Assembly (NCBI GenBank): GCA_964354015.1
Contig: CAYGYB010000001.1
Location: forward strand, 1 to 36,482
Length of the DNA stretch: 36,482 nucleotides
Direction of reading: 5' to 3'
DNA from: an uncultured Candidatus Bathyarchaeia archaeon
Lineage (GTDB): Archaea; Thermoproteota; Bathyarchaeia; Bathyarchaeales; Bathycorpusculaceae
This document shows positions 1 to 29,302 of the stretch, piece by piece. A model generated the notes under the pieces. The model was not told where the DNA came from. It saw nothing but the letters and a program-made list of their open reading frames with translations, and made no database searches. The translations under genes and the position numbers were made by a program. Position 1 is the stretch's first letter; every line of letters begins with the position of its first letter.

Positions 1-1064
1 AGACAGCTGTGGTAGAATACAAAGACGGCGACGCTAGAGGAAGCCACCCGATGGGCTTAGGTCCTTACACGCTTAAGAGTTGGGCGAGACCCGCTGGAAA
101 AGACACTGAAATGACGCTTGAGGCAAATCCGCTTTACTGGAACGCGGCTGCGGGCTATCCGAAAACTAAGACCATAGTTTTCAAGTTCGCTGCAGACGCT
201 GCCGGCTTGGCTTTAGCAATGACGGCGGGAGATGTTGACATTGCGTTTAGGCAGCTTGCCGCATCAGACATAACTAACATGAAGTCAAACACCAACCTGA
301 AGGTTTGGGAAGGCACCGGCGCGTTTATCCAATACCTGTGCATGCAACAAAAGGCTGCGCCTTTCAACAACGTGAAGTTTAGGGAAGCTATAGCCGCTGC
401 AATCAATCGAACCACGCTGGTGGACACTGTGTTCCAAGGGCAAGCGCAGAAACTCTACAGCATGATACCGAGTGGCATGTTCGGTCACACCGACGCATTC
501 CAAGCCATAGGTGATCCAAACTACACTCGCACGCGGGAACTTCTAGGCGAGCTTGGCTACAACGAGAACAACAAATTCTCGTTCACGTTGTGGTTTGAGA
601 CCTCAGGGCACTATCCGCAAAGTCAAGATCAAGCAGTGGTGCTCAAATCTTCGTTGGAAGCAAGTGGCGTAATTAGCGTATCTCTGGAAGGCCGCGACTG
701 GCCAGCGTACAAAGTTAAAAGATCAGAGGAAACCATGGAAGCGTACATTTATGGTTGGTACCCAGACTACATTGACCCAGATGACTACATCTACCCGTTT
801 GTACAGTCTTCAGGCGGGTCATGGCTACACCACAACTACGCTAGCGCGGAAATGGATCAGCTTATTGCGTGGGCTCGAGGAAACACCACTGCGTCAGCTA
901 GAACCGACTTGTATGGGCAAATCCAGGACCTCATGGTTACAGACGTTCCAATAATTCCGCTGTACCAGAGCAGTGCTTATGCGGTGTCGAATCTTAAAGT
1001 GAAAGGAATTTACTTGGACATCACACAGCAATGGCGCAACTGGCTAGTCTACGCCGAAGAGTAA
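1..1064 (+). CDS. ABC transporter substrate-binding protein, family 5 (peptide/nickel/oligosaccharide type), 5'-truncated by the window edge
   Basis: The frame is open from the window edge to the stop at 1062-1064. The length and sequence (e.g. YGWYPDYIDPDDYIYPF, VPIIPLYQ) are typical of the C-terminal two thirds of family-5 SBPs. It lies directly upstream of DppBCDF-type permease and ATPase genes. Confidence 0.8.
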   Translation, partial: TAVVEYKDGDARGSHPMGLGPYTLKSWARPAGKDTEMTLEANPLYWNAAAGYPKTKTIVFKFAADAAGLALAMTAGDVDIAFRQLAASDITNMKSNTNLKVWEGTGAFIQYLCMQQKAAPFNNVKFREAIAAAINRTTLVDTVFQGQAQKLYSMIPSGMFGHTDAFQAIGDPNYTRTRELLGELGYNENNKFSFTLWFETSGHYPQSQDQAVVLKSSLEASGVISVSLEGRDWPAYKVKRSEETMEAYIYGWYPDYIDPDDYIYPFVQSSGGSWLHHNYASAEMDQLIAWARGNTTASARTDLYGQIQDLMVTDVPIIPLYQSSAYAVSNLKVKGIYLDITQQWRNWLVYAEE

Positions 1065-1122
1065 ATTATAATACTTCATTCCCCCCTTTCTTTTTCTTAA
1101 ATGAATGAACGCGTGAAATGAA

Positions 1123-2355
1123 ATGACTCTTCGCACTTACATAATTTCCAGAATTCTGCTCACAATTCCTATGATATTCATTCTTTTGACTACGGTGTTT
1201 TTGGTTATGCGCGTTTTGCCAGGAGACCCAGTTATGCTTCATTTTGAAAAAATGGAGAACCCTGAAGCAATGGCGACGATGCGTATAAGGTTAGGACTTG
1301 ACAAACCTCTGTGGGCGCAGTACTTTGACTATGTAGCTGGTCTTTTCAGAGGAGACCTTGGCAAGTCCATGCAGGACTATTCTCCTGTGGCGCAGCAGAT
1401 TTTTTCGGCTTTTCCTGCAACTTTAGAATTAGCCATTTGTTCCATGATAATCGCGGTTCTGATAGGAGTGTTCCTAGGTGTAGAATCCTCAAAATCGTAT
1501 AATAAACCCAAAGATCAAGTGATAAGAGTGTTCGGAATAGTGACTTATGCTATTCCAGTCTTTTTCCTAGGCATGATTTTTCAGATGATTTTCGGAGTTG
1601 GATTGCACTGGCTGCCAGTAGGCGGAAGAATCGCCTCCACGATGGAACCAACAGGATTAAACATACCGCTTTCTATTCCACCCGGCGGTTTTATCACTCA
1701 TTTTCTGCTGTCATCCTTGGCAGGTCTAGTTCTGCTAGGCGCATATTTTGCTATAGCAAAAGTAAAACACAGGAAGCTTAATCGCAAGGACTATGTCATT
1801 TCGCTTATATTTTTCGTAACGGCTTGGCTTATCTGGGCAGGACTCGGCTGGTGTTACATGTCAAGTGGGGGACTCCACCTGTCAACTGGCCTATTCACAG
1901 TAGACAGCCTTCTTGAAGGAAACCTGTACAAGTTCGGCTTAACTCTGAAATACCTATTTCTGCCATCACTAACTTTAGGTTTGGTCCTCTGCGGAATATT
2001 CATCAGGCTCACGAGAAGCAACATGCTTGAGACCCTGAGACTAGATTTTGTAACAGCAGCCAAAGCAAGAGGATTAAAAGAAAATACAGTGACTTACGGT
2101 TACGCTCTAAGAAACGCGTTCCTGCCAGTACTCACAATGATGGGGCTGCAGTTTGCTATGCTTCTCGCAGGAGCTGTGCTGACTGAAACTACCTTCTCGT
2201 GGCCAGGTCTCGGAAGATACCTTGTGGACCGCATTAACTTTCGAGACTACACGGCTATTCAAGGAACAGTGGTTGTCTTCGGCATTCTCGTTTCCTTCGT
2301 GAGCTTGGCAGTTGACTTGCTTTATGCTTACCTTGACCCCAGAATCCGCTTGTAG
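1123..2355 (+). CDS. ABC transporter permease, DppB/OppB type
   Basis: The N-terminus YIISRILLTIPMIFILLTTVFLVMRVLPGDP is typical. The EAA-loop region reads LDFVTAAKARGLKENTVTYGYALRNAFLPV and the C-terminus is AYLDPRIRL. At 410 aa it is longer than usual because of an extra hydrophobic insert. Confidence 0.85.
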   Translation: MTLRTYIISRILLTIPMIFILLTTVFLVMRVLPGDPVMLHFEKMENPEAMATMRIRLGLDKPLWAQYFDYVAGLFRGDLGKSMQDYSPVAQQIFSAFPATLELAICSMIIAVLIGVFLGVESSKSYNKPKDQVIRVFGIVTYAIPVFFLGMIFQMIFGVGLHWLPVGGRIASTMEPTGLNIPLSIPPGGFITHFLLSSLAGLVLLGAYFAIAKVKHRKLNRKDYVISLIFFVTAWLIWAGLGWCYMSSGGLHLSTGLFTVDSLLEGNLYKFGLTLKYLFLPSLTLGLVLCGIFIRLTRSNMLETLRLDFVTAAKARGLKENTVTYGYALRNAFLPVLTMMGLQFAMLLAGAVLTETTFSWPGLGRYLVDRINFRDYTAIQGTVVVFGILVSFVSLAVDLLYAYLDPRIRL

Positions 2356-3252
2356 GTGATAGGAATGCAGAAACTCAAAATCAAAAAAAGCATGCTTGCG
2401 CATCTCTTGCCTGGGCTCACTTCACTTACAAAAAGGGGTTTGGCAGGTTGGCTGGTAATTTTTGGCGCAATAATAGTGGCAGTAGTCGTTGTAATGACTG
2501 TAATTTCACCTTGGATTTCACCCTATGACCCCACCAAGATTAATATTAGCAGCCAACCGCTATCTCCTCCGTCTTCCCAGTTTCCGTTTGGAACTGACCA
2601 TTTAGGTCGCGACATGCTCAGTCGAGTCATATCTGGCGGAGGCGTAATGCTTCAAGTCGCTGTATTATCCGTTATCGTTTGCTTACTGATAGGGGTCCCG
2701 TTGGGCCTATTCTCATCGCACACAGGCGGTATAATTGACAGGTTCATCAGCCTCATCATGGACAGCGTGTACGCGTTTCCAGGATTAATCCTAGCCATCG
2801 CATTAACAGCGGTCTTGGGAACAGGCGTTATCAATATGGCGATCTCCATCGCGGTGGTGTATGTTCCCTCCTACTTCAGGATAATCCGCAGTCAAGTACT
2901 CAGCATAAAAGAAATGTCCTATGTTGAAGCAGCAAACGCAGCGGGAGCCAAAAAACGCACGATTCTTTTGCGGTACATTCTGCCGAACGTTGTCCCCTCA
3001 ATAGCTGTGGTTGCAACAGTAAATTTCGCCGACGCCATACTCACCGCTGCAGGCTTAACGTTCATCGGCATGGGCGTACCAGTTGACATCCCAGATTGGG
3101 GGTGGGACTTGACAAACGGGCGAAAACTGCTGCCGAGTGGCGCATGGTGGGTCATAACTTTCCCTGGCTTGATGATTATTCTTTTGGCTTTGGGTTTCAC
3201 TTTGATGGGCGAGGGCTTAAGCGAACTGTTAAGCCCGAAGCTGGAAGAGTGA
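2356..3252 (+). CDS. ABC transporter permease, DppC/OppC type
   Basis: It abuts the upstream stop. Motifs include PFGTDHLGRDMLSRV and the EAA-type loop YVEAANAAGAKKRTILLRYILPNV. The protein has multiple TM segments. Confidence 0.85.
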   Translation: MIGMQKLKIKKSMLAHLLPGLTSLTKRGLAGWLVIFGAIIVAVVVVMTVISPWISPYDPTKINISSQPLSPPSSQFPFGTDHLGRDMLSRVISGGGVMLQVAVLSVIVCLLIGVPLGLFSSHTGGIIDRFISLIMDSVYAFPGLILAIALTAVLGTGVINMAISIAVVYVPSYFRIIRSQVLSIKEMSYVEAANAAGAKKRTILLRYILPNVVPSIAVVATVNFADAILTAAGLTFIGMGVPVDIPDWGWDLTNGRKLLPSGAWWVITFPGLMIILLALGFTLMGEGLSELLSPKLEE

Positions 3253-3267
3253 GGTGAAAAAGAAAAA

Positions 3268-4245
3268 ATGGCGCAATCGTTGATGACTGTTGACACGTTA
3301 ACTGTGGAATACTGGACGCGGAAAGGAAAAATCCGCGCAGTTGAGAACCTGTCCTTCTCTCTAGAAAAATCTGAAACGCTGGGCATAGTCGGAGAATCAG
3401 GTTCAGGAAAATCCACGTTAGGCTTGTCGTTGATAGGGCTCGTTCCGTTCCCAGGCAGAATAACACAGGGCAAAATAATTCTTAACGGCAAAGAGGTTCT
3501 GAAGCTCAAAAAAGACGACTTGCGCAACTTAAGAGGGAAAGAAGTCTGCTACGTATTCCAAGACCCAATGACTTCTTTAAATCCCGTCAAAAAAATCGGC
3601 GACCACTTTGTGGAGTTAATCCAAACTCACGAACCCAAAGTAACCAAACAACAGGCACTTGAACGCGCTAAAAAATTGCTCAAGGACGTTGGCATACAGC
3701 CTGAACGAATAAGCGATTATCCCCACCAGCTCAGCGGCGGAATGAGACAAAGAGTAATGATAGCTTTAGCAATAGCGCTTAACCCAGCCATAGTTGTTGC
3801 TGATGAACCGACAACGGCTTTAGACGTTATTGTCCAAGCAAAAATACTTGACCTGCTAAACGCGTTACGTGACGCTTATGGAATGGCGCTAATATTAATA
3901 ACCCATGACTTGAGTATAGTGATGCAAAGAAGCGACAGAATCATCGTCATGTACGCTGGGCAAATGGTCGAATGCGCGCCCAGCATAGAAATTTACTCGA
4001 ACCCCAAACATCCATATACTCAAGGGCTTCTAAAATCAATTCCTAACATTGAACTAGCTGACCAGAAACTTGAAACCATCTCAGGGTCTCCTCCAGACAT
4101 GCTTAACCTGCCCAAAGGCTGCCGATTCTGGCCTCGTTGCCGCTACGCCTTTGAAAAGTGCCGAATAGAAGCACCAATGCTTTTTGAAACTGGAGCAGAA
4201 CATTTCGCTAGGTGTTTCCTGTACGAAGAAGGGAGAAAAACGTGA
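3268..4245 (+). CDS. ABC transporter ATP-binding protein, DppD/OppD type
   Basis: Walker A is GESGSGKST, the signature is LSGGMRQRV, Walker B is IVVADEPTTALDV and the H-loop is ITHDL. The C-terminal oligopeptide-type tail reads HPYTQGLL...GCRFWPRCRYA. Confidence 0.9.
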   Translation: MAQSLMTVDTLTVEYWTRKGKIRAVENLSFSLEKSETLGIVGESGSGKSTLGLSLIGLVPFPGRITQGKIILNGKEVLKLKKDDLRNLRGKEVCYVFQDPMTSLNPVKKIGDHFVELIQTHEPKVTKQQALERAKKLLKDVGIQPERISDYPHQLSGGMRQRVMIALAIALNPAIVVADEPTTALDVIVQAKILDLLNALRDAYGMALILITHDLSIVMQRSDRIIVMYAGQMVECAPSIEIYSNPKHPYTQGLLKSIPNIELADQKLETISGSPPDMLNLPKGCRFWPRCRYAFEKCRIEAPMLFETGAEHFARCFLYEEGRKT

Positions 4246-5390
4246 GCGAAAACGAAATTCTCACGGTTGAACATTTAAAAAAGTATTTTCCCGTAGAAAA
4301 AAGCTTCCTCGAGAAAATGCTGACGCGGACGAGACGCTTTGTTAGGGCAGTGGACGACGTGAGTTTTTCTGTTCGGAAAGGTGAAATTTTCACTCTAGCG
4401 GGAGAAAGCGGGTGTGGAAAAACAACCACTGGTAAACTTGTTGTACGCCTGATGTCGCCGACCAGTGGAAAAATCTTCTTTAACGGTGCTGAAATTACTG
4501 AGCTCGATCACGAAGCCTTGAGAGTGCTTAGGCGAAAAATGCAGATAATATTTCAGGATCCTTACGCTTCTTTCAATCCGCGAATGAAAATCGGAAAAGC
4601 GGTGGGGCATCCGCTTGAGATTCACGGGTTGGCACGGCATGAAGAGACACGAGAAAGCGTTCTGTTAATACGAAAATCTCTCGAGAGGCATCGTAAACTA
4701 TGCTACATTTTGGAAAAAGCATGGAAAAATTCAGTGGTACGATCTCTCGAGAGGTACTTAATTGGTCGAAATCCGCTTGCGAAGTTAGCCACAACCCGAA
4801 GAGTTGACAGAACCCGAGAAAGGGTCTTAGAGATATTGGACCGCGTAGGTTTGACTCCAGCAGAAAAATTCGTGGACCTGTACCCGCATCAAATGAGTGG
4901 TGGGCAAAGACAACGTGCAGCCATGGCAAGAGCACTCATACTGCAACCCGAATTCATAGTCGCAGACGAACCAGTCTCAATGATTGATGTCTCGCTTAGA
5001 ACAGCAATAATCGATTTAATGCTAAACTTGAGGAAAGATTTCGGACTCACGTACCTCTTCATCACGCATGACCTAGCAATAGCCAAATACATTTCCGACA
5101 GAATCGCCATAATGTACCTCGGAAAAATCGTCGAGTTAGCCGACAAACAAACCATTTTCGCCAACCCCCTGCATCCCTACACTCAAGCGCTACTGGCAGC
5201 CATTCCTGTTCCAGTTCCAGAACAAAAGCGGAAAAAAACCGAACTCATAGGCGACGTACCTTCCGCCATAAACATACCTTCAGGCTGCCGCTTTCGCACA
5301 AGATGCCGATACGCCAAAAAAGCTTGCGCAGAAAAAGAGCCCCAATTAATCCCTGTTGCACCCAACCACTATGTCGCATGCAACGGCTGA
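4242..5390 (+). CDS. ABC transporter ATP-binding protein, DppF/OppF type, carrying a 55-codon in-frame insertion
   Basis: Walker A is GESGCGKTT, followed by IFQDPYASFNPR, the signature MSGGQRQR, Walker B FIVADEPVSMIDV and H-loop ITHDL. The tail reads HPYTQALL...GCRFRTRCRYA. I prefer GTG at 4242 over the track start at 4212, because GGGAGA lies just upstream and the GTGA overlaps the oppD-like stop. Confidence 0.85.
   Translation: MSENEILTVEHLKKYFPVEKSFLEKMLTRTRRFVRAVDDVSFSVRKGEIFTLAGESGCGKTTTGKLVVRLMSPTSGKIFFNGAEITELDHEALRVLRRKMQIIFQDPYASFNPRMKIGKAVGHPLEIHGLARHEETRESVLLIRKSLERHRKLCYILEKAWKNSVVRSLERYLIGRNPLAKLATTRRVDRTRERVLEILDRVGLTPAEKFVDLYPHQMSGGQRQRAAMARALILQPEFIVADEPVSMIDVSLRTAIIDLMLNLRKDFGLTYLFITHDLAIAKYISDRIAIMYLGKIVELADKQTIFANPLHPYTQALLAAIPVPVPEQKRKKTELIGDVPSAINIPSGCRFRTRCRYAKKACAEKEPQLIPVAPNHYVACNG
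4658..4814. mobile_element. MITE-like insertion inside the OppF-like gene (157 bp plus an 8-bp duplicated target)
   Basis: An exact 8-bp direct repeat CGAGAAAG occurs at 4650-4657 and 4815-4822, 165 bp apart. Terminal inverted repeats GTTCTGT (4659-4665) and ACAGAAC (4807-4813) flank the element. An internal 13-bp direct repeat ATCTCTCGAGAGG (4676-4688, 4742-4754) contains the palindrome CTCTCGAGAG. Removing the element restores the canonical HEETRERVLEILDRVGL spacing. Confidence 0.4.
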
Positions 5391-5613
5391 AAACTGAGGC
5401 TCTTTAGAACAGAGACACTTGTGTTCAACACAAATACTTCACGTTTGACACTAAAAGTTAAAGTGGCACCACTGCACTTGTTCATTTTTGGCATTTTCCT
5501 TTCAATTTTCGAGTATACACGTATATCAGTTATTACCAACAACCATTCAAAACGTGTATTGAGGACAGCAGCATTACTACGTACAATACACGTTAAAGAA
5601 CAGAGGAAAAGCA

Positions 5614-5952
5614 ATGTTTAAGAAAGAACTGCTGTTTTGCTTTGCCCTGATTTCGATGGGCACAATAGATTGGGTGACTACAGTTACTGGCACACTCTGC
5701 TTCGGCGCAGTAGAAATTAACCCCCTGCTCGCAGGATTAACAAAAACAAACATCCTGCTTTTTAGCGTAATAAAACTCACAATAGTTGTACTTACAGGAC
5801 TCCTGTTTTATAAAGCAGGCACAATTGTGAACATGTTAAAAAGTAGCTCTCATTTAGGAAAGCGCGCTTTGGAATCAGGATATGCTCTGTCACTCATGAT
5901 GCTCACGGTTGCAGTTACAAACAACATAGTCACAGTTGCCAGGATCATGTAA
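5614..5952 (+). CDS. small integral membrane protein (DUF5658-like)
   Basis: The 112-aa ORF has 3-4 hydrophobic helices. The motif GTIDWVTTVTGTLCFGAVEINPLLAGL resembles the D-x-x-T...E-x-NP pattern of DUF5658. This assignment is tentative. Confidence 0.45.
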   Translation: MFKKELLFCFALISMGTIDWVTTVTGTLCFGAVEINPLLAGLTKTNILLFSVIKLTIVVLTGLLFYKAGTIVNMLKSSSHLGKRALESGYALSLMMLTVAVTNNIVTVARIM

Positions 5953-6076
5953 GAATCGACGTCAACACACTTGGTTTTATTCTGCCGTCTCTTTAACTGC
6001 AATTTTATGAATTCAAAAGTTTCAAAAAACCAAAAATAGCCTACCGCGAAGAACCCAACCATCGCGATGCGAGAGG

Positions 6077-6220
6077 CGCCGGGGAAGGGATTCGAACCCC
6101 TGCGAGCCAAAGGCCCACTGGCTGGCTTGCCCACTTCTTTGCAATCTTTGGATCTCGACACTGGTCCTCACACGTTGATTGCGAGGAAGGCCAGCGCATT
6201 AACCACTCTGCCACCCCGGC
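6077..6220 (-). tRNA. intron-containing tRNA with a class II (seryl-like) body; anticodon unresolved
   Basis: The minus strand reads GCCGGGG-TG-GCAGAGTGGTTAATGC-G-CTGGC...GCCAG-T-GGGCC-TTT-GGCTC-GC-AGGGG-TTCGAAT-CCCTT-CCCCGGC-G. The 7-bp acceptor stem is perfect. There is a D arm with a G13/A22 mismatch, a T arm with a TTCGAAT loop, a 5-bp variable-arm hairpin and discriminator G. About 60 extra nt lie between the two halves of the anticodon stem, including a 6-bp GCAATC/GATTGC helix. Confidence 0.7.
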
Positions 6221-6297
6221 TTGAGTTATGCGTTGTTTTGCGACAGTACCTAGGCAACGGATTTGCCCTTGCTCGTTAATTGAAGATGCCATCCCTT

Positions 6298-7129
6298 CTA
6301 AAAGTGTTTTGCATCGCAACCGCATCGCTCATGCTTAACACAAATCAACTCGTCACAGACTTTGCAGAATTCAGACTTTCCGAGACGCACAATATATGTT
6401 GCCTTATTGCTGTAAGATATTGAAGAAGGCAGTATCTTGCTAACCGTTGGTTTCAATCCTAATCGATTGAATAAGTCAACTAATTGTTCAACCAATGCAG
6501 AATTCACTGTGGTAATGTCTGCACCAAAATGACCACTTCTGCGCTTATTCCTGTGCACATGCCCATCCGCATCAATCAGACCGCCAACAAAACCAACCAC
6601 AAAATCTCTAGACCAAGCAGGCATGCTAACAAGCACTTTATGTGCTTCCCCATTATTTTCGTCATATTTAACAAAACCCTGAAGAAGCACCAGAAGACTC
6701 TTTGAATAAACTTTCATGACTAGCCAAGGTACCCGCCGAATACAATGTAACGCGTTTACCCGATTTCTCGAACAAGTGGCAGAGGAAAGAAGTAATTTCG
6801 GAGTCTCTTTTGGCGTCGAGACCGAATTGTGCACCATAGTGTCCACTTCGCTTGTCCAAAATTTGGCTTCCGTCGCCGACAAAAAAGCCAACAATATACC
6901 CAAGTTCACGTTTACTAAAAACAGAAAAGTCTATTGATGATTGCCTTCTTGAAAATTGGCTGGCATACCTATGCACTGTAGTATAGCTGATTCCTGTTTT
7001 CCTAGAAACTCCTCTGAGAGATAGCCCTTTCTTAACTAAGCTCTGAATATCGTCAACCTTCTCAGGCGCTAATCGTCCTAAGTGCCTAAGCTTGGGTTTT
7101 TTATTAACCCCTGAGTCAGGACAGCTCAT
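6298..7129 (-). pseudogene. LAGLIDADG homing endonuclease (two-domain, N-terminal HTH), interrupted by a frameshift
   Basis: Two overlapping ORFs in different frames (6668-7129 and 6298-6909) cover the gene. The first carries an HTH (LSLRGVSRKTGISYTTVHRY) and LAGLIDADG motif 1 (LGYIVGFFVGDGS). The second carries motif 2 (FVVGFVGGLIDADGHV). The reading frames can be joined by a 1-nt shift around 6710-6740. Confidence 0.75.
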
Positions 7130-7190
7130 GATTTGTCAATAAAGTCTTAGAAGGACTTCTTCTTAAAGTCTATGACAAAATTAAATCGTG

Positions 7191-7212
7191 TTAGCCACTC
7201 CGCCACCCCGGC
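7191..7212 (-). repeat. orphan duplicate of the tRNA 5' end (positions 1-22: acceptor 5' strand to D loop)
   Basis: The minus-strand sequence GCCGGGGTGGCGGAGTGGCTAA matches GCCGGGGTGGCAGAGTGGTTAA of the full tRNA (6199-6220) at 20 of 22 positions. Similarity stops in the D loop. The sequence then runs about 60 nt into the LAGLIDADG start codon. Confidence 0.65.
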
Positions 7213-7238
7213 TCGAATAGAAGGATTGCATTACTGTC

Positions 7239-7246
7239 ATAAAATG
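7239..7246 (-). promoter_or_regulatory. TATA-like box upstream of the orphan tRNA 5' fragment
   Basis: The minus strand reads CATTTTAT about 27-34 nt upstream of the fragment's first nucleotide (7212). No comparably A/T-rich box lies at that distance upstream of the full tRNA at 6220. Confidence 0.3.
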
Positions 7247-7430
7247 TTTTCAGTTTCCACACGCCATCATATTTGGAACCTAATAGTCAATCAATGCAGA
7301 AACCTATAGGGGGCTATCCCCACAAGCACTTGCCACGCTATTTATAGTATTTAAAAGGGGGGTATAGTCTTTCCCACGCGCTAGAGAACATGCCTCATTA
7401 AGAACAAAAAAGGTGGTGTAAAAAAACAGT

Positions 7431-8099
7431 TTATTCTCTGCTTGAGAGCACCACGATGTAATCAGCTGTGTCCGCGCACATGTCTGCAGCGTGCTCGATG
7501 AACTCGATTAAATCGTCAAGTATGACCATGACTCCGCAGTTGATTTCGCCGCCGTATTTAACGAACAAAGACTTTGCCTTAAGGTACTCTGTGTCCAAGT
7601 CATGTTCAATGTCTTCGACTTTTTTTGCCTCAGCTATCGCCCCAGCGGGGTTGGTTGAAATTTTTTCGATGCTGCCGCGCAGGGTTTGAGCGGTTTCTAC
7701 AAGTTTCGAGGTCATGAACACGGTTTTTTTACCCAGTTCTTCTGGAATTTCCGTTTCTCCAAGCATTTCTAGGCATCTTGCTGCGTCTTTAGTGTGGTCT
7801 GCCAGAGTGTCCAGTCTTTTCACGAGATGCAGCAGGTCTTCGCGGTAGTCTGCCACTAAAGCTGCGCCTTTGGATAGCTCCTTGAAAACGTCTGTGCGCA
7901 ACTTGTCCACTTCTTCTTCCACCTTGTACAAGTTTTCAACGTAACTTTGGGCTTCCTTGTATTTTTTTTCTGAGAAGCTTTTCATAGCTTTATGGAGCCA
8001 AGTTACCGTGTCAAAAGCTTTGATTATCTGTTCCTGTGCTATCTCTAACCCTTTTGTTCTGCGGCGTTTTTCAAACCAGTCGTAGCTTCTTTTTTCCAC
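7431..8099 (-). CDS. DUF47 / PhoU-like (TIGR00153-type) protein
   Basis: The 222-aa all-helical protein has an N-terminus (WFEKRRRTKGLEIAQEQIIKA...) and heptad-like EE/KK pattern typical of the DUF47 PhoU-related family. No transporter partner is present in the window. Confidence 0.55.
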   Translation of the reverse strand: MEKRSYDWFEKRRRTKGLEIAQEQIIKAFDTVTWLHKAMKSFSEKKYKEAQSYVENLYKVEEEVDKLRTDVFKELSKGAALVADYREDLLHLVKRLDTLADHTKDAARCLEMLGETEIPEELGKKTVFMTSKLVETAQTLRGSIEKISTNPAGAIAEAKKVEDIEHDLDTEYLKAKSLFVKYGGEINCGVMVILDDLIEFIEHAADMCADTADYIVVLSSRE

Positions 8100-24368: not shown

Positions 24369-25583
24369 TTAGTCACGCTTTACGATGGCGCGTCCGTCTT
24401 GCAGCGTATGAATAAGCGTCCAGCCCTCGTTAAGATAGTTCAATAGTTCGTTCTCTGCAATCTGCTTGAATTCTTCTCCGCAGTGTCTTCCGTTAGTGCA
24501 TTCAGGATTTACATGTTTTTTATCTCTAAGCAACATCCATCGCCGTCTAAGTTGTTGCTGCTCAGCTTCCAACTGTGCCAAGCGTTCGGACACCTCTTTC
24601 GGCACTTGCTTCTTATCAGCCGTAAACTCTAAAAGCGGCACGGCTTCGGCAAACTTTGCGCGTAACTGATCAATAGCGGGTTGGCTGTACGGTGCTTCCT
24701 CGCCCTTAACTTTGCGTCCTCTGATTTTGCGCGCCCAGTTTGGAACCATACCAATCTCCTCAAGCGCCGTGTTCACGTAGCGCCTCGCATCATGCAAGCT
24801 AAACTGCACGCCTGCTCCCTTACTTAAACGCCAGATTAGCTTGCCATACTCCTCGTAAGCCAGCGGTTTAAAAGGCGCGCGGGTTTCAAGCCACACGTTA
24901 TCCTCAGCAGTTAAAGTTCGCCCAAGTTTCTGCTCAATCCACTCTTTGTAAAGTTTTAAGTCTCTAACTGCTTCCGGCGTTAAGAAAGTTATCTGCTGAA
25001 CGCCCTTGTAGCGTCCGCGTCCGTGCCCTTTCAAAATCTCTGACGGAAGGTTTATGCACGGTAAATCCGCTTGTTCCCAATCGTCTTGAATGTGCTTCCA
25101 TTTAAGTTGCGACAGCGTTTCCTTGGCGATAGCGGTTGAGTTGACGAAAGTGATAAGCGCTTTATCTCGCAAGTTCGACGACCAACTCCACAGTTTACGT
25201 AGGTTTTGCTTAGAGGGCTTATTGTACGGCTTAACTTTCTCAAGTTGAACAACTCCGCACGCTCTGGCTAAGTCGCAGTAGTTATGCTTAAAAAAACTCT
25301 TAACTGCTGTTGTAACGCGGAACTTAACGGAATTCTTGAAGCCTGCTTTGTTCTCAGCAACAAAATCGTCTAATAGCGCCTCAGCTTCTTTGCTTGCTGG
25401 GTTACTTTTAAGCGCCAGCAGCTCCGTTGGTGACTTTCCGCTCCACTGGCAGAAGCGGTAAAGGTCAAAAGCGTTTAGCTGCTTCTCCTGAATGCGCGTA
25501 AGCCAGCGCTTAACCTCATCGTAGCGTTCAGCCCACGCTTCAAGCACGTTATTCTTTTTAATCTCGCTCATTTTAGCTTTCAC
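24369..25583 (-). CDS. tyrosine recombinase / integrase
   Basis: The catalytic-domain pattern is ...ETRAP..., FSLHDARRYVNT (H-x-x-R), NWARKIRGRK, then APYSQP as a candidate nucleophile Tyr. The N-terminal SAM-like domain fits. It lies at the edge of the accessory segment. Confidence 0.75.
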   Translation of the reverse strand: MKAKMSEIKKNNVLEAWAERYDEVKRWLTRIQEKQLNAFDLYRFCQWSGKSPTELLALKSNPASKEAEALLDDFVAENKAGFKNSVKFRVTTAVKSFFKHNYCDLARACGVVQLEKVKPYNKPSKQNLRKLWSWSSNLRDKALITFVNSTAIAKETLSQLKWKHIQDDWEQADLPCINLPSEILKGHGRGRYKGVQQITFLTPEAVRDLKLYKEWIEQKLGRTLTAEDNVWLETRAPFKPLAYEEYGKLIWRLSKGAGVQFSLHDARRYVNTALEEIGMVPNWARKIRGRKVKGEEAPYSQPAIDQLRAKFAEAVPLLEFTADKKQVPKEVSERLAQLEAEQQQLRRRWMLLRDKKHVNPECTNGRHCGEEFKQIAENELLNYLNEGWTLIHTLQDGRAIVKRD

Positions 25584-28003: not shown

Positions 28004-29302
28004 TTACCGCTTTAAGCTTATCTTCTCGATGGCGCCCATGTATTTTCTTAAAACTTTCGGGACAACAATTGAGCCGTCTTCTTGTTGGAAATTCTCCAAA
28101 ATTGCGACGATGGTTCTGCCAGTGGCTATGGCTGTAGAGTTCAAGGTGTGAACGAAACCTTTTGTGGGTGCGCCTTCTTTTTCTCTGTACCGTATGTTTA
28201 AGCGTCTAGCCTGATAATCTGTGCAGTTGCTGCATGAGACTATTTCTCTGTACGCGTTTTGAGCGGGCATCCACGCTTCAATGTCGTATTTTTTGGCTGC
28301 TACTGTTCCAATGTCGCCTGTGCACACGTTGACTACGCGGTAAGGTAAACCGAGTTTTTGGACAAGTTCCTCCGCGTTGTGAATAAGTTCTTCGTGTAGT
28401 TTCCATGATTCTTCGGGCGTGCAGAAAACAAACTGTTCTATCTTGTTGAACTGGTGAGTTCGGAATATTCCGCGGGTGTCTTTGCCGTGGGCGCCAGCTT
28501 CCTTCCTGAAGCACGCGCTTATCCCCGCGAGTTTAAGCGGCAACTCTTCTTCTTTTAACACTTCATCCTTGAACATTGCAGCCATAGGATGCTCTGAAGT
28601 TGCGATTAGGTACAGGTCTTCGTTTTCGATTTTGTATAGCATGTCTTCGAAGTCGCTTAGGGCTGTGACGCCTTCGTACGCGTCTCGCCGCATCAGATAT
28701 GGCGGTTCCACGGGTGAGTAGCCTTTTTTCACGATTTCTTCCAAAGCAAAACTTATCAGCGCCATGTCCAAAAGTGCGCCTTCCTTTTTTAAGTAGAAGA
28801 ATCTGGAGCCTGAGACCTTGCCGGCCCTTTCAATGTCAATTATATCCAAGTTTAGGCTCAAATCTATGTGATTCTTGATTGGGAAGTTGAATTTGGGGAT
28901 GGCGCCCCATGTTCTTACTTGGGCGTTGTCGTTTTCGTCTTTTCCAACCGGCACGGTTTCATGCAGCAAATTTGGCAGTCTCATGAGGTAATCGCGCGTT
29001 TTCTCTTCTGCTTTGGCTACCTCTTGTTCTACACCTGTGATTTCAGCGTCGATTCGTCTTGCTTTCTCAACTTTGCCAAGCGCGTCTTTTCCAGCTTTTT
29101 TCAGCAGGGCAATTTCAGTGGTTACCACCTTTCTTTCGTGGCGAAGTTCGTTTAGCTTCGTTAGGTTCTGCCGCCATTGCCTGTCAACATCTATTAGTTC
29201 CTCAAGCATCTTGAGGTTTTCTGGGTTTCCTCTTTTGTCTATGTTATTCTTCACAAGTTCCGGTTTTTCTCGGATGAGTTTGATGTCTAACATTTTTCTC
29301 AC
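28004..29302 (-). CDS. serS: seryl-tRNA synthetase
   Basis: The N-terminus has MLDIKLIREKPELV followed by a coiled-coil arm. Class II motifs are FRKEAGAHGKDTRGIFRTHQF, TGDIG..AAKKYDIEAWMP and HTLNSTAIATGRTIVAILENFQ. The true start may be the second Met at 29293. Confidence 0.9.
   Translation of the reverse strand: MRKMLDIKLIREKPELVKNNIDKRGNPENLKMLEELIDVDRQWRQNLTKLNELRHERKVVTTEIALLKKAGKDALGKVEKARRIDAEITGVEQEVAKAEEKTRDYLMRLPNLLHETVPVGKDENDNAQVRTWGAIPKFNFPIKNHIDLSLNLDIIDIERAGKVSGSRFFYLKKEGALLDMALISFALEEIVKKGYSPVEPPYLMRRDAYEGVTALSDFEDMLYKIENEDLYLIATSEHPMAAMFKDEVLKEEELPLKLAGISACFRKEAGAHGKDTRGIFRTHQFNKIEQFVFCTPEESWKLHEELIHNAEELVQKLGLPYRVVNVCTGDIGTVAAKKYDIEAWMPAQNAYREIVSCSNCTDYQARRLNIRYREKEGAPTKGFVHTLNSTAIATGRTIVAILENFQQEDGSIVVPKVLRKYMGAIEKISLKR

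Follow-up and report, generated by a model that had tools for sequence, protein, structure and literature searches.

We propose that a free-standing LAGLIDADG homing endonuclease (HE) cassette has invaded the tRNA-Ser(CGA) gene of Bathyarchaeia, a reading that we regard as likely and that combines two known kinds of system, the free-standing homing endonuclease and the tRNA gene disrupted with gain of an intron. The locus lies in a 36,482-nt stretch of DNA from an uncultured Candidatus Bathyarchaeia archaeon (contig CAYGYB010000001.1 of assembly GCA_964354015.1), here called the window, on whose minus strand all parts of the locus are read. Related loci and lineages carry L-numbers, and are HE-plus when they bear the cassette and HE-minus when the site is empty. 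An earlier note made from the window sequence had described, in this order, a TATA-like box, a copy of a tRNA 5' end, a LAGLIDADG open reading frame (ORF) and a complete tRNA, and this order holds, with the TATA-like TTTTATGA at 7237-7244, 32 nt 5' of the tRNA fragment. The pairing of a LAGLIDADG cassette with a duplicated tRNA 5' end, which the note regarded as unusual, proves to be a recurring family found in 7 lineages rather than a one-off.

Comparison of filled and empty alleles carries this reading. The earlier note had suggested looking in related genomes for the empty tRNA site, and through orthologs of the DUF5658 neighbour such sites were reached in five lineages (L213/214, L215/216, L218, L219 and L220-223). 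In these HE-minus alleles the promoter leads directly into a complete tRNA-Ser(CGA) with G12-C23, no intron at position 32/33 and a 40-45-nt intron at 37/38, the allele sequence being GAGTGGTTA[TA]CGCGCT[GA]GCCTCGAGATCC. One and the same promoter element, equally far away, stands before the intact tRNA in HE-minus L213, L215, L218, L219 and L220 and before the fragment in the HE-plus loci. The synteny of L213 is that of the window (Opp-DUF5658-tRNA-PhoU_div), while L218 matches the HE-plus L089, so that the same homologous site is polymorphic, filled against empty, in both pairs. L089 and L218, the closest pair, share 2.8 kb of left flank at 95.5% identity, unbroken through tRNA position 28, the L089 fragment being identical to the L218 tRNA at 28/28 positions, and homology is regained only over the final 54 nt of the tRNA. 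Between the window and L213 a homology of 86-90% ends at 7192, which is tRNA position 21. The insertion claimed in the earlier note is thus borne out, with the junction moved from the D-loop region to the boundary of the D-stem and anticodon stem, at positions 22-28.

Because L089 and L218 share no homology between position 28 and the final 54 nt, the foreign DNA is, as judged from these alignments, the cassette together with tRNA positions 1 to ~43, including A12-U23, G29-C41, a new intron and a short second intron. Indeed, the restored tRNA of L089 has G29-C41 where L218 has A29-U41, and in the window, L081, L089 and L226 the fragment keeps G12 while the downstream tRNA has A12-U23. The empty sites and this difference at position 12 agree with the view of the earlier note that the element carries a replacement for the displaced 5' segment, although the replaced segment is longer than was proposed, running from 1 to ~43 and taking in the new 32/33 intron. 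Nucleotide identity of the DUF5658 gene is 0.89 for the window and L213, 0.93 for L089 and L218 and 0.78 for the window and L089, each HE-plus lineage being sister to an HE-minus lineage. The empty alleles are ancestral, since a deletion between the repeats would have spared the 32/33 intron and the short intron 2; the filled alleles originated at least twice through insertion and replacement, or else were spread by recombination. A scan of metagenomes with the DNA pattern GACCAGNNTCGAGATCC was set aside as too unspecific, all 120 matches being due to chance.

Six further HE-plus loci were found through HE homologs of 52-86% identity, and comparison of the surrounding DNA gives the same layout in all six of these Bathyarchaeia lineages, a tRNA-type promoter followed by a 5' tRNA fragment of 14-28 nt, the HE gene, with its 276-aa ORF mostly intact, a spacer of 35-78 nt and tRNA-Ser(CGA). 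The flanking genes vary by lineage (eRF1/Ssb-like, PhoU/CMD, PhoU/DUF5658, L3-L4/PQQ and others). Since the HE-plus contigs stem from ENA, JGI, NCBI and Logan samples that are independent of one another, the fragment-HE-tRNA layout cannot be an assembly artefact. No recombinase lies between the repeats in any of the seven HE-plus lineages, the HE ORF being the sole content. The 32/33 intron is present in 6/7 HE-plus and 0/5 HE-minus lineages, and the restored tRNA is likewise altered at 12/23 in 6/7 HE-plus lineages. In L087 the intact tRNA is the same as in the empty alleles up to and including position 32, all its differences starting with the intron.

The fragment is cut off at positions 22-28 in the invaded allele, with the L225 fragment only ~14 nt long, and its positions 1-18 are invariant in five lineages. 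Fragments lie 0-3 substitutions from an intact tRNA 5' end, against a dS of 0.6-3 for the HE gene, and this low divergence would fit repeated fresh invasions, constraint on the fragment being the alternative. The window copy, with three fragment substitutions and a frameshifted HE ORF, looks old. Decay is found elsewhere as well, through a frameshift in L226, a C-terminal frameshift in L224 and the lack of an ATG in L225, and this pattern of damage matches the cycle of invasion and decay of homing genes. In L225 (3699-3825) and L226 (3835-3976), whose HE ORFs are N-terminally damaged, positions 1-3 of the downstream tRNA are also mutated (CATGGGG and TACGGGG instead of GCCGGGG), giving a broken acceptor stem and Rfam scores of 29-31 bits.

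The downstream copy in the window (6077-6220) is a complete tRNA, as the earlier note had it, scoring 48.6 bits against the Rfam gathering score of 29 and being the sole Rfam tRNA in the window; it carries two introns and not one. ARAGORN, which the note had suggested running, returns no tRNA in the window in default mode and, once introns are allowed, an implausible Ala(GGC) with a long variable arm, a miscall. Class II features are present, namely the long variable arm (a 13-nt variable-arm insert in the Rfam alignment) and discriminator G73, and the anticodon loop CUCGAGA is uninterrupted in related alleles that lack the first insert. From the long variable arm, the discriminator G and this contiguous CUCGAGA we assign the gene as tRNA-Ser(CGA); its introns, at 32/33 and 37/38, are 30 nt each, the mature length is 84 nt, and the tRNA still looks functional.

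Presence and absence of intron 1 is precise, CTGGCC running directly into TCGAGATCC across its site in the 5 HE-minus lineages. In the structure predicted for it, a CUGG/CCAG helix is accompanied by a CCU bulge and an NN/U bulge, the two nucleotides before U33 being variable. The allele comparison together with the predicted helix and 3-nt bulges identifies it as an archaeal bulge-helix-bulge intron, with splicing predicted; covariation gave no support for its hairpin, the sequences being too few and too alike. Intron 2, as read from the sequence, has the anticodon stem, a CCA bulge, a CUCG/CAAG helix, an AGA bulge and a UCC/GGG helix.

The frameshifted two-domain LAGLIDADG ORF of the earlier note is likewise upheld. 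Two overlapping ORFs (7129-6668 and 6909-6298) jointly encode an N-terminal helix-turn-helix (HTH) and two LAGLIDADG motifs, with Pfam matches to LAGLIDADG_3 (E 1.2e-9) and Hom_end (8.8e-7), and removal of one T at 6726/6727 opens a single ORF of 831 nt and 276 aa, equal in length to intact homologs. Both motifs, LGYIVGFFVGDG and LGFVGGLIDADG, are intact in the window copy, and the catalytic D86 and D188 are invariant among 16 homologs. The ratio of nonsynonymous to synonymous substitution rates (dN/dS) is 0.10-0.24 among homologs, and the HE gene is under purifying selection. An AlphaFold2 model (predicted local distance difference test 85, predicted template modelling score 0.78) finds PI-SceI, PI-PfuI, I-DmoI and I-Tsp061I as its top Foldseek matches (E 1e-9 to 1e-7), the TM score to I-DmoI being 0.65-0.69 when normalised to I-DmoI, with WhiA a weaker match; a sequence search of the PDB with the HE gave no useful match. 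The motifs and the modelled pseudo-dimeric alpha-beta-beta-alpha-beta-beta-alpha fold place the protein in the LAGLIDADG homing endonuclease family, with cleavage predicted. The family is tiny and patchy, the repaired protein having ~25-29 relatives (29 clusters) among 5.8 billion proteins, many of them exactly 276 aa long and the named ones annotated as Bathyarchaeia LAGLIDADG endonucleases. A wider HTH and LAGLIDADG family of 245-275 aa (proteins P0083-P0228) comprises 262 representative clusters at E<1e-10. A search of IMG/VR for viral carriers yielded only LAGLIDADG genes of 22-36% identity, with no adjacent tRNAs.

At 7191-7212 the 5' duplicate agrees with tRNA positions 1-22 in 20/22 cases, as the earlier note counted, with no such match in 100 shuffles, and the repeat becomes 23/26 once the 4 nt before position 1 are included. 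At the 3' side of the fragment an ATTTT(T)(T)G run is found in the window, L081, L089 and L226, with none in L087; this run, TTTAATTTT in the window, resembles the oligo-T terminators of archaea. Fragment and HE are separated by a spacer of ~60 nt in the window, L081, L087 and L089 and of ~80 nt in L226, these being the alignable loci. It holds the element CTTTAAGA, conserved as AGA[CA]TTTA[AT][GA]AAG in the window, L081, L087 and L089, which by its sequence is a probable cassette promoter. The earlier note had seen no TATA box for the complete tRNA, and there is none at about -30 in the window; the conserved CTTTAAGA ~38 nt before the HE start is the addition to that account. Within the spacer between HE and tRNA the motifs CTTCAATTAAC.AGC and CCGTTGCC.AGGTACTG are conserved across lineages, the former TATA-like, yet ~57 nt from the tRNA. 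The T5 and T6 runs 3' of the tRNA are a probable terminator of the HE-tRNA transcript. The motif CCTTCTAA in the HE 5' untranslated region (7147-7154) is complementary to TTAGAAGG across the HE stop codon (6294-6301); a long-range helix between these regions was considered and rejected, 6-8 bp being conserved and TTCTAA/TTAGAA present in 4/5 lineages with no compensatory changes. About 55 nt 3' of the tRNA (window 6011-6068) are shared by the window and HE-minus L218 and not by HE-minus L213, an indel unrelated to the cassette.

Table 1. Features of the tRNA-Ser(CGA) locus and of its surroundings in the window
Feature	Position	Strand	Remarks
BRE (B recognition element)/TATA-like promoter of the original tRNA-Ser(CGA) gene	7237..7250	-	AAAACATTTTATGA; by consensus resemblance
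Stranded 5' tRNA fragment	7187..7212	-	similarity to position 26; empty-allele G12 kept
T-rich run TTTAATTTT	7177..7185	-	right behind the fragment; marks the cassette 5' end
TATA-like CTTTAAGA	7161..7168	-	~38 nt before the HE start codon
HTH and double-LAGLIDADG homing endonuclease gene	6298..7129	-	+1 frameshift, extra T at 6726/6727
Spacer, HE stop codon to tRNA	6221..6297	-	77 nt; no oligo-T run
tRNA-Ser(CGA) exon 1	6189..6220	-	positions 1-32; cassette-type A12-U23; junction from intron-less alleles
Intron 1	6159..6188	-	30 nt; position 32/33; bulge-helix-bulge type; HE-plus alleles only
tRNA exon 2	6154..6158	-	positions 33-37, UCGAG; anticodon CGA
Intron 2	6124..6153	-	30 nt; canonical 37/38; shorter than the 40-45-nt HE-minus intron
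tRNA exon 3	6077..6123	-	position 38 to discriminator G73; long variable arm, T arm, acceptor 3' strand
Two oligo-T runs (T5, T6)	6024..6036	-	3' of the tRNA
Opp-type ABC operon	9-5390		
DUF5658	5614-5952		followed by the tRNA/HE unit
PhoU_div	7431-8099		
17.5-kb segment	8145-25703		absent from relatives
CofD, MoaE, S3Ae			beyond the 17.5-kb segment
SerRS (seryl-tRNA synthetase)	28004-29302		

Our model for the invasion is as follows. The enzyme would cut the uninvaded allele in the region of the D-stem, anticodon stem and anticodon loop, roughly at positions 20-40. The target must reach to the right of position 28, because the promoter-plus-fragment in invaded genomes would otherwise be cut, and as the L087 tRNA is the empty allele through position 32, the L087 enzyme, if active, needs a site spanning 32/33. 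The break would then be repaired from a filled allele, with the promoter and fragment as the left homology arm and the 3' part of the tRNA as the right arm, copying the cassette and co-converting the tRNA to the anticodon stem, up to ~43. Self-immunity would be provided by the truncation of the fragment at ~28 and by the interruption of the restored gene at 32/33 by the mini-intron and/or its changes at 12/23. One transcript would cover both the HE and the tRNA, starting at the cassette promoter or reading through from the old one. Co-transcription is suggested by the T-run after the fragment, the TATA-like element before the HE, the lack of an oligo-T run before the tRNA and the T5 and T6 runs after it. 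RNase P and the splicing endonuclease would then release the 84-nt tRNA. The first cassette may have come from end-joining of a broken tRNA gene to donor DNA in which the HE lay upstream of a tRNA.

Several points weigh against this model. The frameshift in the window could be an assembly error, the target site of the enzyme is one that we infer from the alleles, and the putative promoters and terminators are assigned by consensus resemblance only. The HE of the window and that of L089 have diverged (66% amino acid identity, dS ~1.5) to the same order as their hosts, and long vertical co-descent with allele replacement remains compatible with this. The association of the HE with intron 1 is not phylogenetically independent, as the HE-plus tRNA alleles form one allele class, and L225 has the cassette beside a tRNA without the 32/33 intron, so that the intron is not obligatory beside the HE. 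Finally, to judge from the mutated positions 1-3 of the downstream copies in L225 and L226, tRNA function is not always kept.

Two rival explanations concern the nature of the inserted gene. The locus could be the remnant of an integrase-mediated plasmid or virus integration of the pNOB8 or SSV type, with the 5' repeat as the attachment (att) site and the HE as a passenger. Direct repeats of a tRNA part around inserted DNA are the hallmark of such events (PMC3293823), and tRNA-Ser(CGA) is an insertion hot spot, with a second insertion in L089 and an integrase-bearing island 0.9 kb away in the window. We nevertheless think it unlikely, since none of the seven lineages has a recombinase between the repeats, the island has its own 8-nt repeat beyond the PhoU_div gene, and the L089 tRNA is foreign from 29 to ~43, beyond the 28-nt repeat, so that its tRNA-side sequence is not host-derived; with the downstream copy foreign to ~43 despite a junction at 28, a single crossover in an att core cannot explain the allele. 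The protein might, on the other hand, be domesticated, as a WhiA-like regulator or a factor for tRNA or intron maturation that is vertical and immobile. The strong purifying selection, the N-terminal HTH and a fold that also match WhiA, the constant linkage to one tRNA and the divergence of the HE, comparable to that of the host, would all suit such a role, to which we give little credence because presence and absence differ between genomes with 90-95% identical flanks, both motifs keep an invariant catalytic Asp, which WhiA does not, copies decay in a manner typical of the homing cycle rather than of a host gene, and the family is confined, patchily, to those 29 clusters.

Two further rivals, both raised in the earlier note, concern the fragment. 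The ~990-nt stretch could be a giant HE-bearing intron, or the gene a split tRNA, with the upstream fragment as the true 5' exon, and for this speak the damaged downstream 5' acceptor strand in L225 and L226, the perfect upstream fragment of L226, and the invariance of fragment positions 1-18. Yet the copies are direct repeats and therefore cannot pair into a bulge-helix-bulge motif; a scan for such motifs recovers intron 1, its positive control, and offers as sole in-register candidate GGUU/GGUU with four G·U pairs. Moreover, in most lineages the downstream tRNA is complete with a perfect acceptor stem, releasable by RNase P, the L225 fragment measures only ~14 nt, and no conserved complementary segment was found between the halves of a split tRNA, so we hold both versions, unsupported by Rfam and by the bulge-helix-bulge scan, to be very improbable. 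An intron-encoded endonuclease was rejected as well, with the ORF 77 nt upstream of tRNA position 1 and both 30-nt introns ORF-less, as was a group I intron, Rfam at E<=5 over 5900-7450 finding only the tRNA and the non-coding parts measuring ~60 and 77 nt. The 22-nt copy could instead be the relic of an independent decayed tRNA gene, the HE merely lying between two tRNA genes, an outcome that the earlier note had named as refuting its own reading. tRNA-Ser isoacceptors do share 5' ends, and the copy differs at 2/22 positions. The empty-site alleles refute this: in 5/5 HE-minus lineages just one tRNA follows the promoter that in HE-plus loci stands before the fragment, and the L089 fragment equals the L218 tRNA throughout, with homology continuous from the flank. 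With one promoter and one intact tRNA at the empty sites, the fragment must be the 5' end that the gene originally had rather than a degraded tRNA of separate origin, and we regard the decayed-gene explanation as extremely improbable.

The invasion that we propose has partial parallels among known systems. SegB, of the T4 tRNA gene cluster, is a free-standing GIY-YIG endonuclease of a phage that performs intronless homing. It shares with our cassette an endonuclease gene outside any intron or intein and beside tRNA genes; it spreads by double-strand-break repair with co-conversion, its HE-plus allele being self-protected by sequence differences, features that we infer here, and it differs in its GIY-YIG class, its phage genome, and the lack of a stranded gene fragment and of a delivered intron. 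Archaeal LAGLIDADG enzymes are also known from inteins. Others occur in rRNA introns, including group I introns (PMC6125680). I-DmoI, I-Tsp061I and I-PorI, of bulge-helix-bulge introns in rRNA, share with the window protein a monomeric two-domain fold, an archaeal host, a stable-RNA gene as target and an accompanying bulge-helix-bulge intron, whereas in the window the ORF lies outside the intron, ~80 nt upstream of the tRNA, the accompanying intron is 30 nt long and ORF-less, the putative target is a tRNA gene and not an rRNA gene, an N-terminal HTH is added and part of the target gene is duplicated. WhiA has the LAGLIDADG scaffold and an HTH and is a structural match, but it is a conserved, vertical host gene that has lost the catalytic acidic residues and carries the HTH at its C-terminus, unlike the window HE with its invariant Asp, N-terminal HTH and patchy distribution. 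Integration of the SSV1/pNOB8 type shares the tRNA target, the direct repeat of a tRNA part and a tRNA rebuilt from element-borne sequence, while the window has no integrase, a 5' repeat, so that the promoter is displaced, and a foreign tract extending beyond the repeat.

The nearest precedent by its published layout is the tRNA-Thr(GGU) locus of Caldiarchaeum subterraneum, where a 5' fragment (positions 1-27) precedes 1,868 bp of inserted DNA that hold an ORF of 813 bp in the orientation of the tRNA (Sugahara et al. 2012, PLoS One 7:e32504, PMC3293823). That tRNA gained an intron at 24/25, filled and empty alleles coexist in one population, and the ORF was classed by a machine-learning classifier as a putative recombinase and the event attributed to pNOB8-type integration (PMC3293823). 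Both loci have a fragment with its upstream flank, a single-ORF insertion (813 vs 831 bp) and a complete tRNA with an extra intron. They differ in that the Caldiarchaeum insertion, of 1.87 kb, has a repeated 545-bp element and its intron lies inside the repeat, whereas in the window the ORF is an HTH-LAGLIDADG gene, the 32/33 intron lies outside the repeat and the replaced tract is longer than the repeat. Named proteins, representatives, cluster names and the supplements of the paper gave no sequence or name with which to compare the Caldiarchaeum ORF 'b'. Full-text literature searches returned no report of a tRNA-associated LAGLIDADG cassette in Bathyarchaeia.

The surroundings of the locus are themselves variable. 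The PhoU_div neighbour is 78-95% identical to proteins of Bathyarchaeia metagenome-assembled genomes (MAGs), and the 80 Bathyarchaeia loci found through it (L001-L080) have no tRNA or HE nearby and supplied no empty site; their homology to the window ends at ~7350, 134 nt before the fragment. In L003 and L219, which belong to one MAG (GCA_026014705.1), PhoU_div and tRNA-Ser(CGA) are on separate contigs. From this end of homology and the separate contigs we conclude that the tRNA locus is a rearrangement breakpoint among Bathyarchaeia. The ~17.5-kb segment beyond PhoU_div is absent from 80/80 related loci, in which PhoU_div lies immediately next to the CofD region. At its borders stands a direct repeat of 8 nt, TTATATGT, which forms the TATA box of the PhoU_div promoter. 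The segment codes for a weak XerA-like tyrosine recombinase (24369-25583), a family B DNA polymerase, a RadA-like ATPase, HEPN/AbiV, a HerA/CedD-like ATPase, type I/IIG restriction-modification genes and a NosD-like protein, and probably represents an integrated element or a defence island. In L089 a second insertion, of 1.8 kb (3902-5688), lies directly 3' of the tRNA, with an 84-aa ORF and a molybdopterin oxidoreductase gene; it is flanked by an 11-nt repeat of the tRNA 3' end (TTCCCCGGCGC) and is absent in L218. The seryl-tRNA synthetase gene lies 22 kb from tRNA-Ser, and ~4 kb from PhoU_div in relatives without the island, a proximity that is probably coincidence.

The locus bears on the questions of how introns came to lie at odd positions in archaeal tRNA genes and of where split tRNAs and orphan tRNA fragments originate. 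The usual proposals for odd tRNA introns are protection against integrating elements and intron transposition, with little direct evidence. Here the alleles before and after the event occur naturally, and a recognisable endonuclease gene is physically linked to the acquisition of a non-canonical intron, so that the idea of protection becomes testable with one protein and two DNA substrates. We suggest tentatively, as a proposal somewhat less probable than not, that the cassette is a vehicle of intron gain, in which an intron-less tRNA allele is swapped for a mini-intron allele that cannot be cut, and that the tRNA-Thr of Caldiarchaeum, a member of another phylum, arose by the same mechanism, which would suggest a reinterpretation of the 2012 observation. 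With this finding the archaeal LAGLIDADG enzymes, besides those of rRNA introns and inteins, include a free-standing form predicted to target a tRNA gene. If our model is true, selfish cleavage would be a direct source of non-canonical tRNA introns and stranded tRNA fragments and would also spread them.

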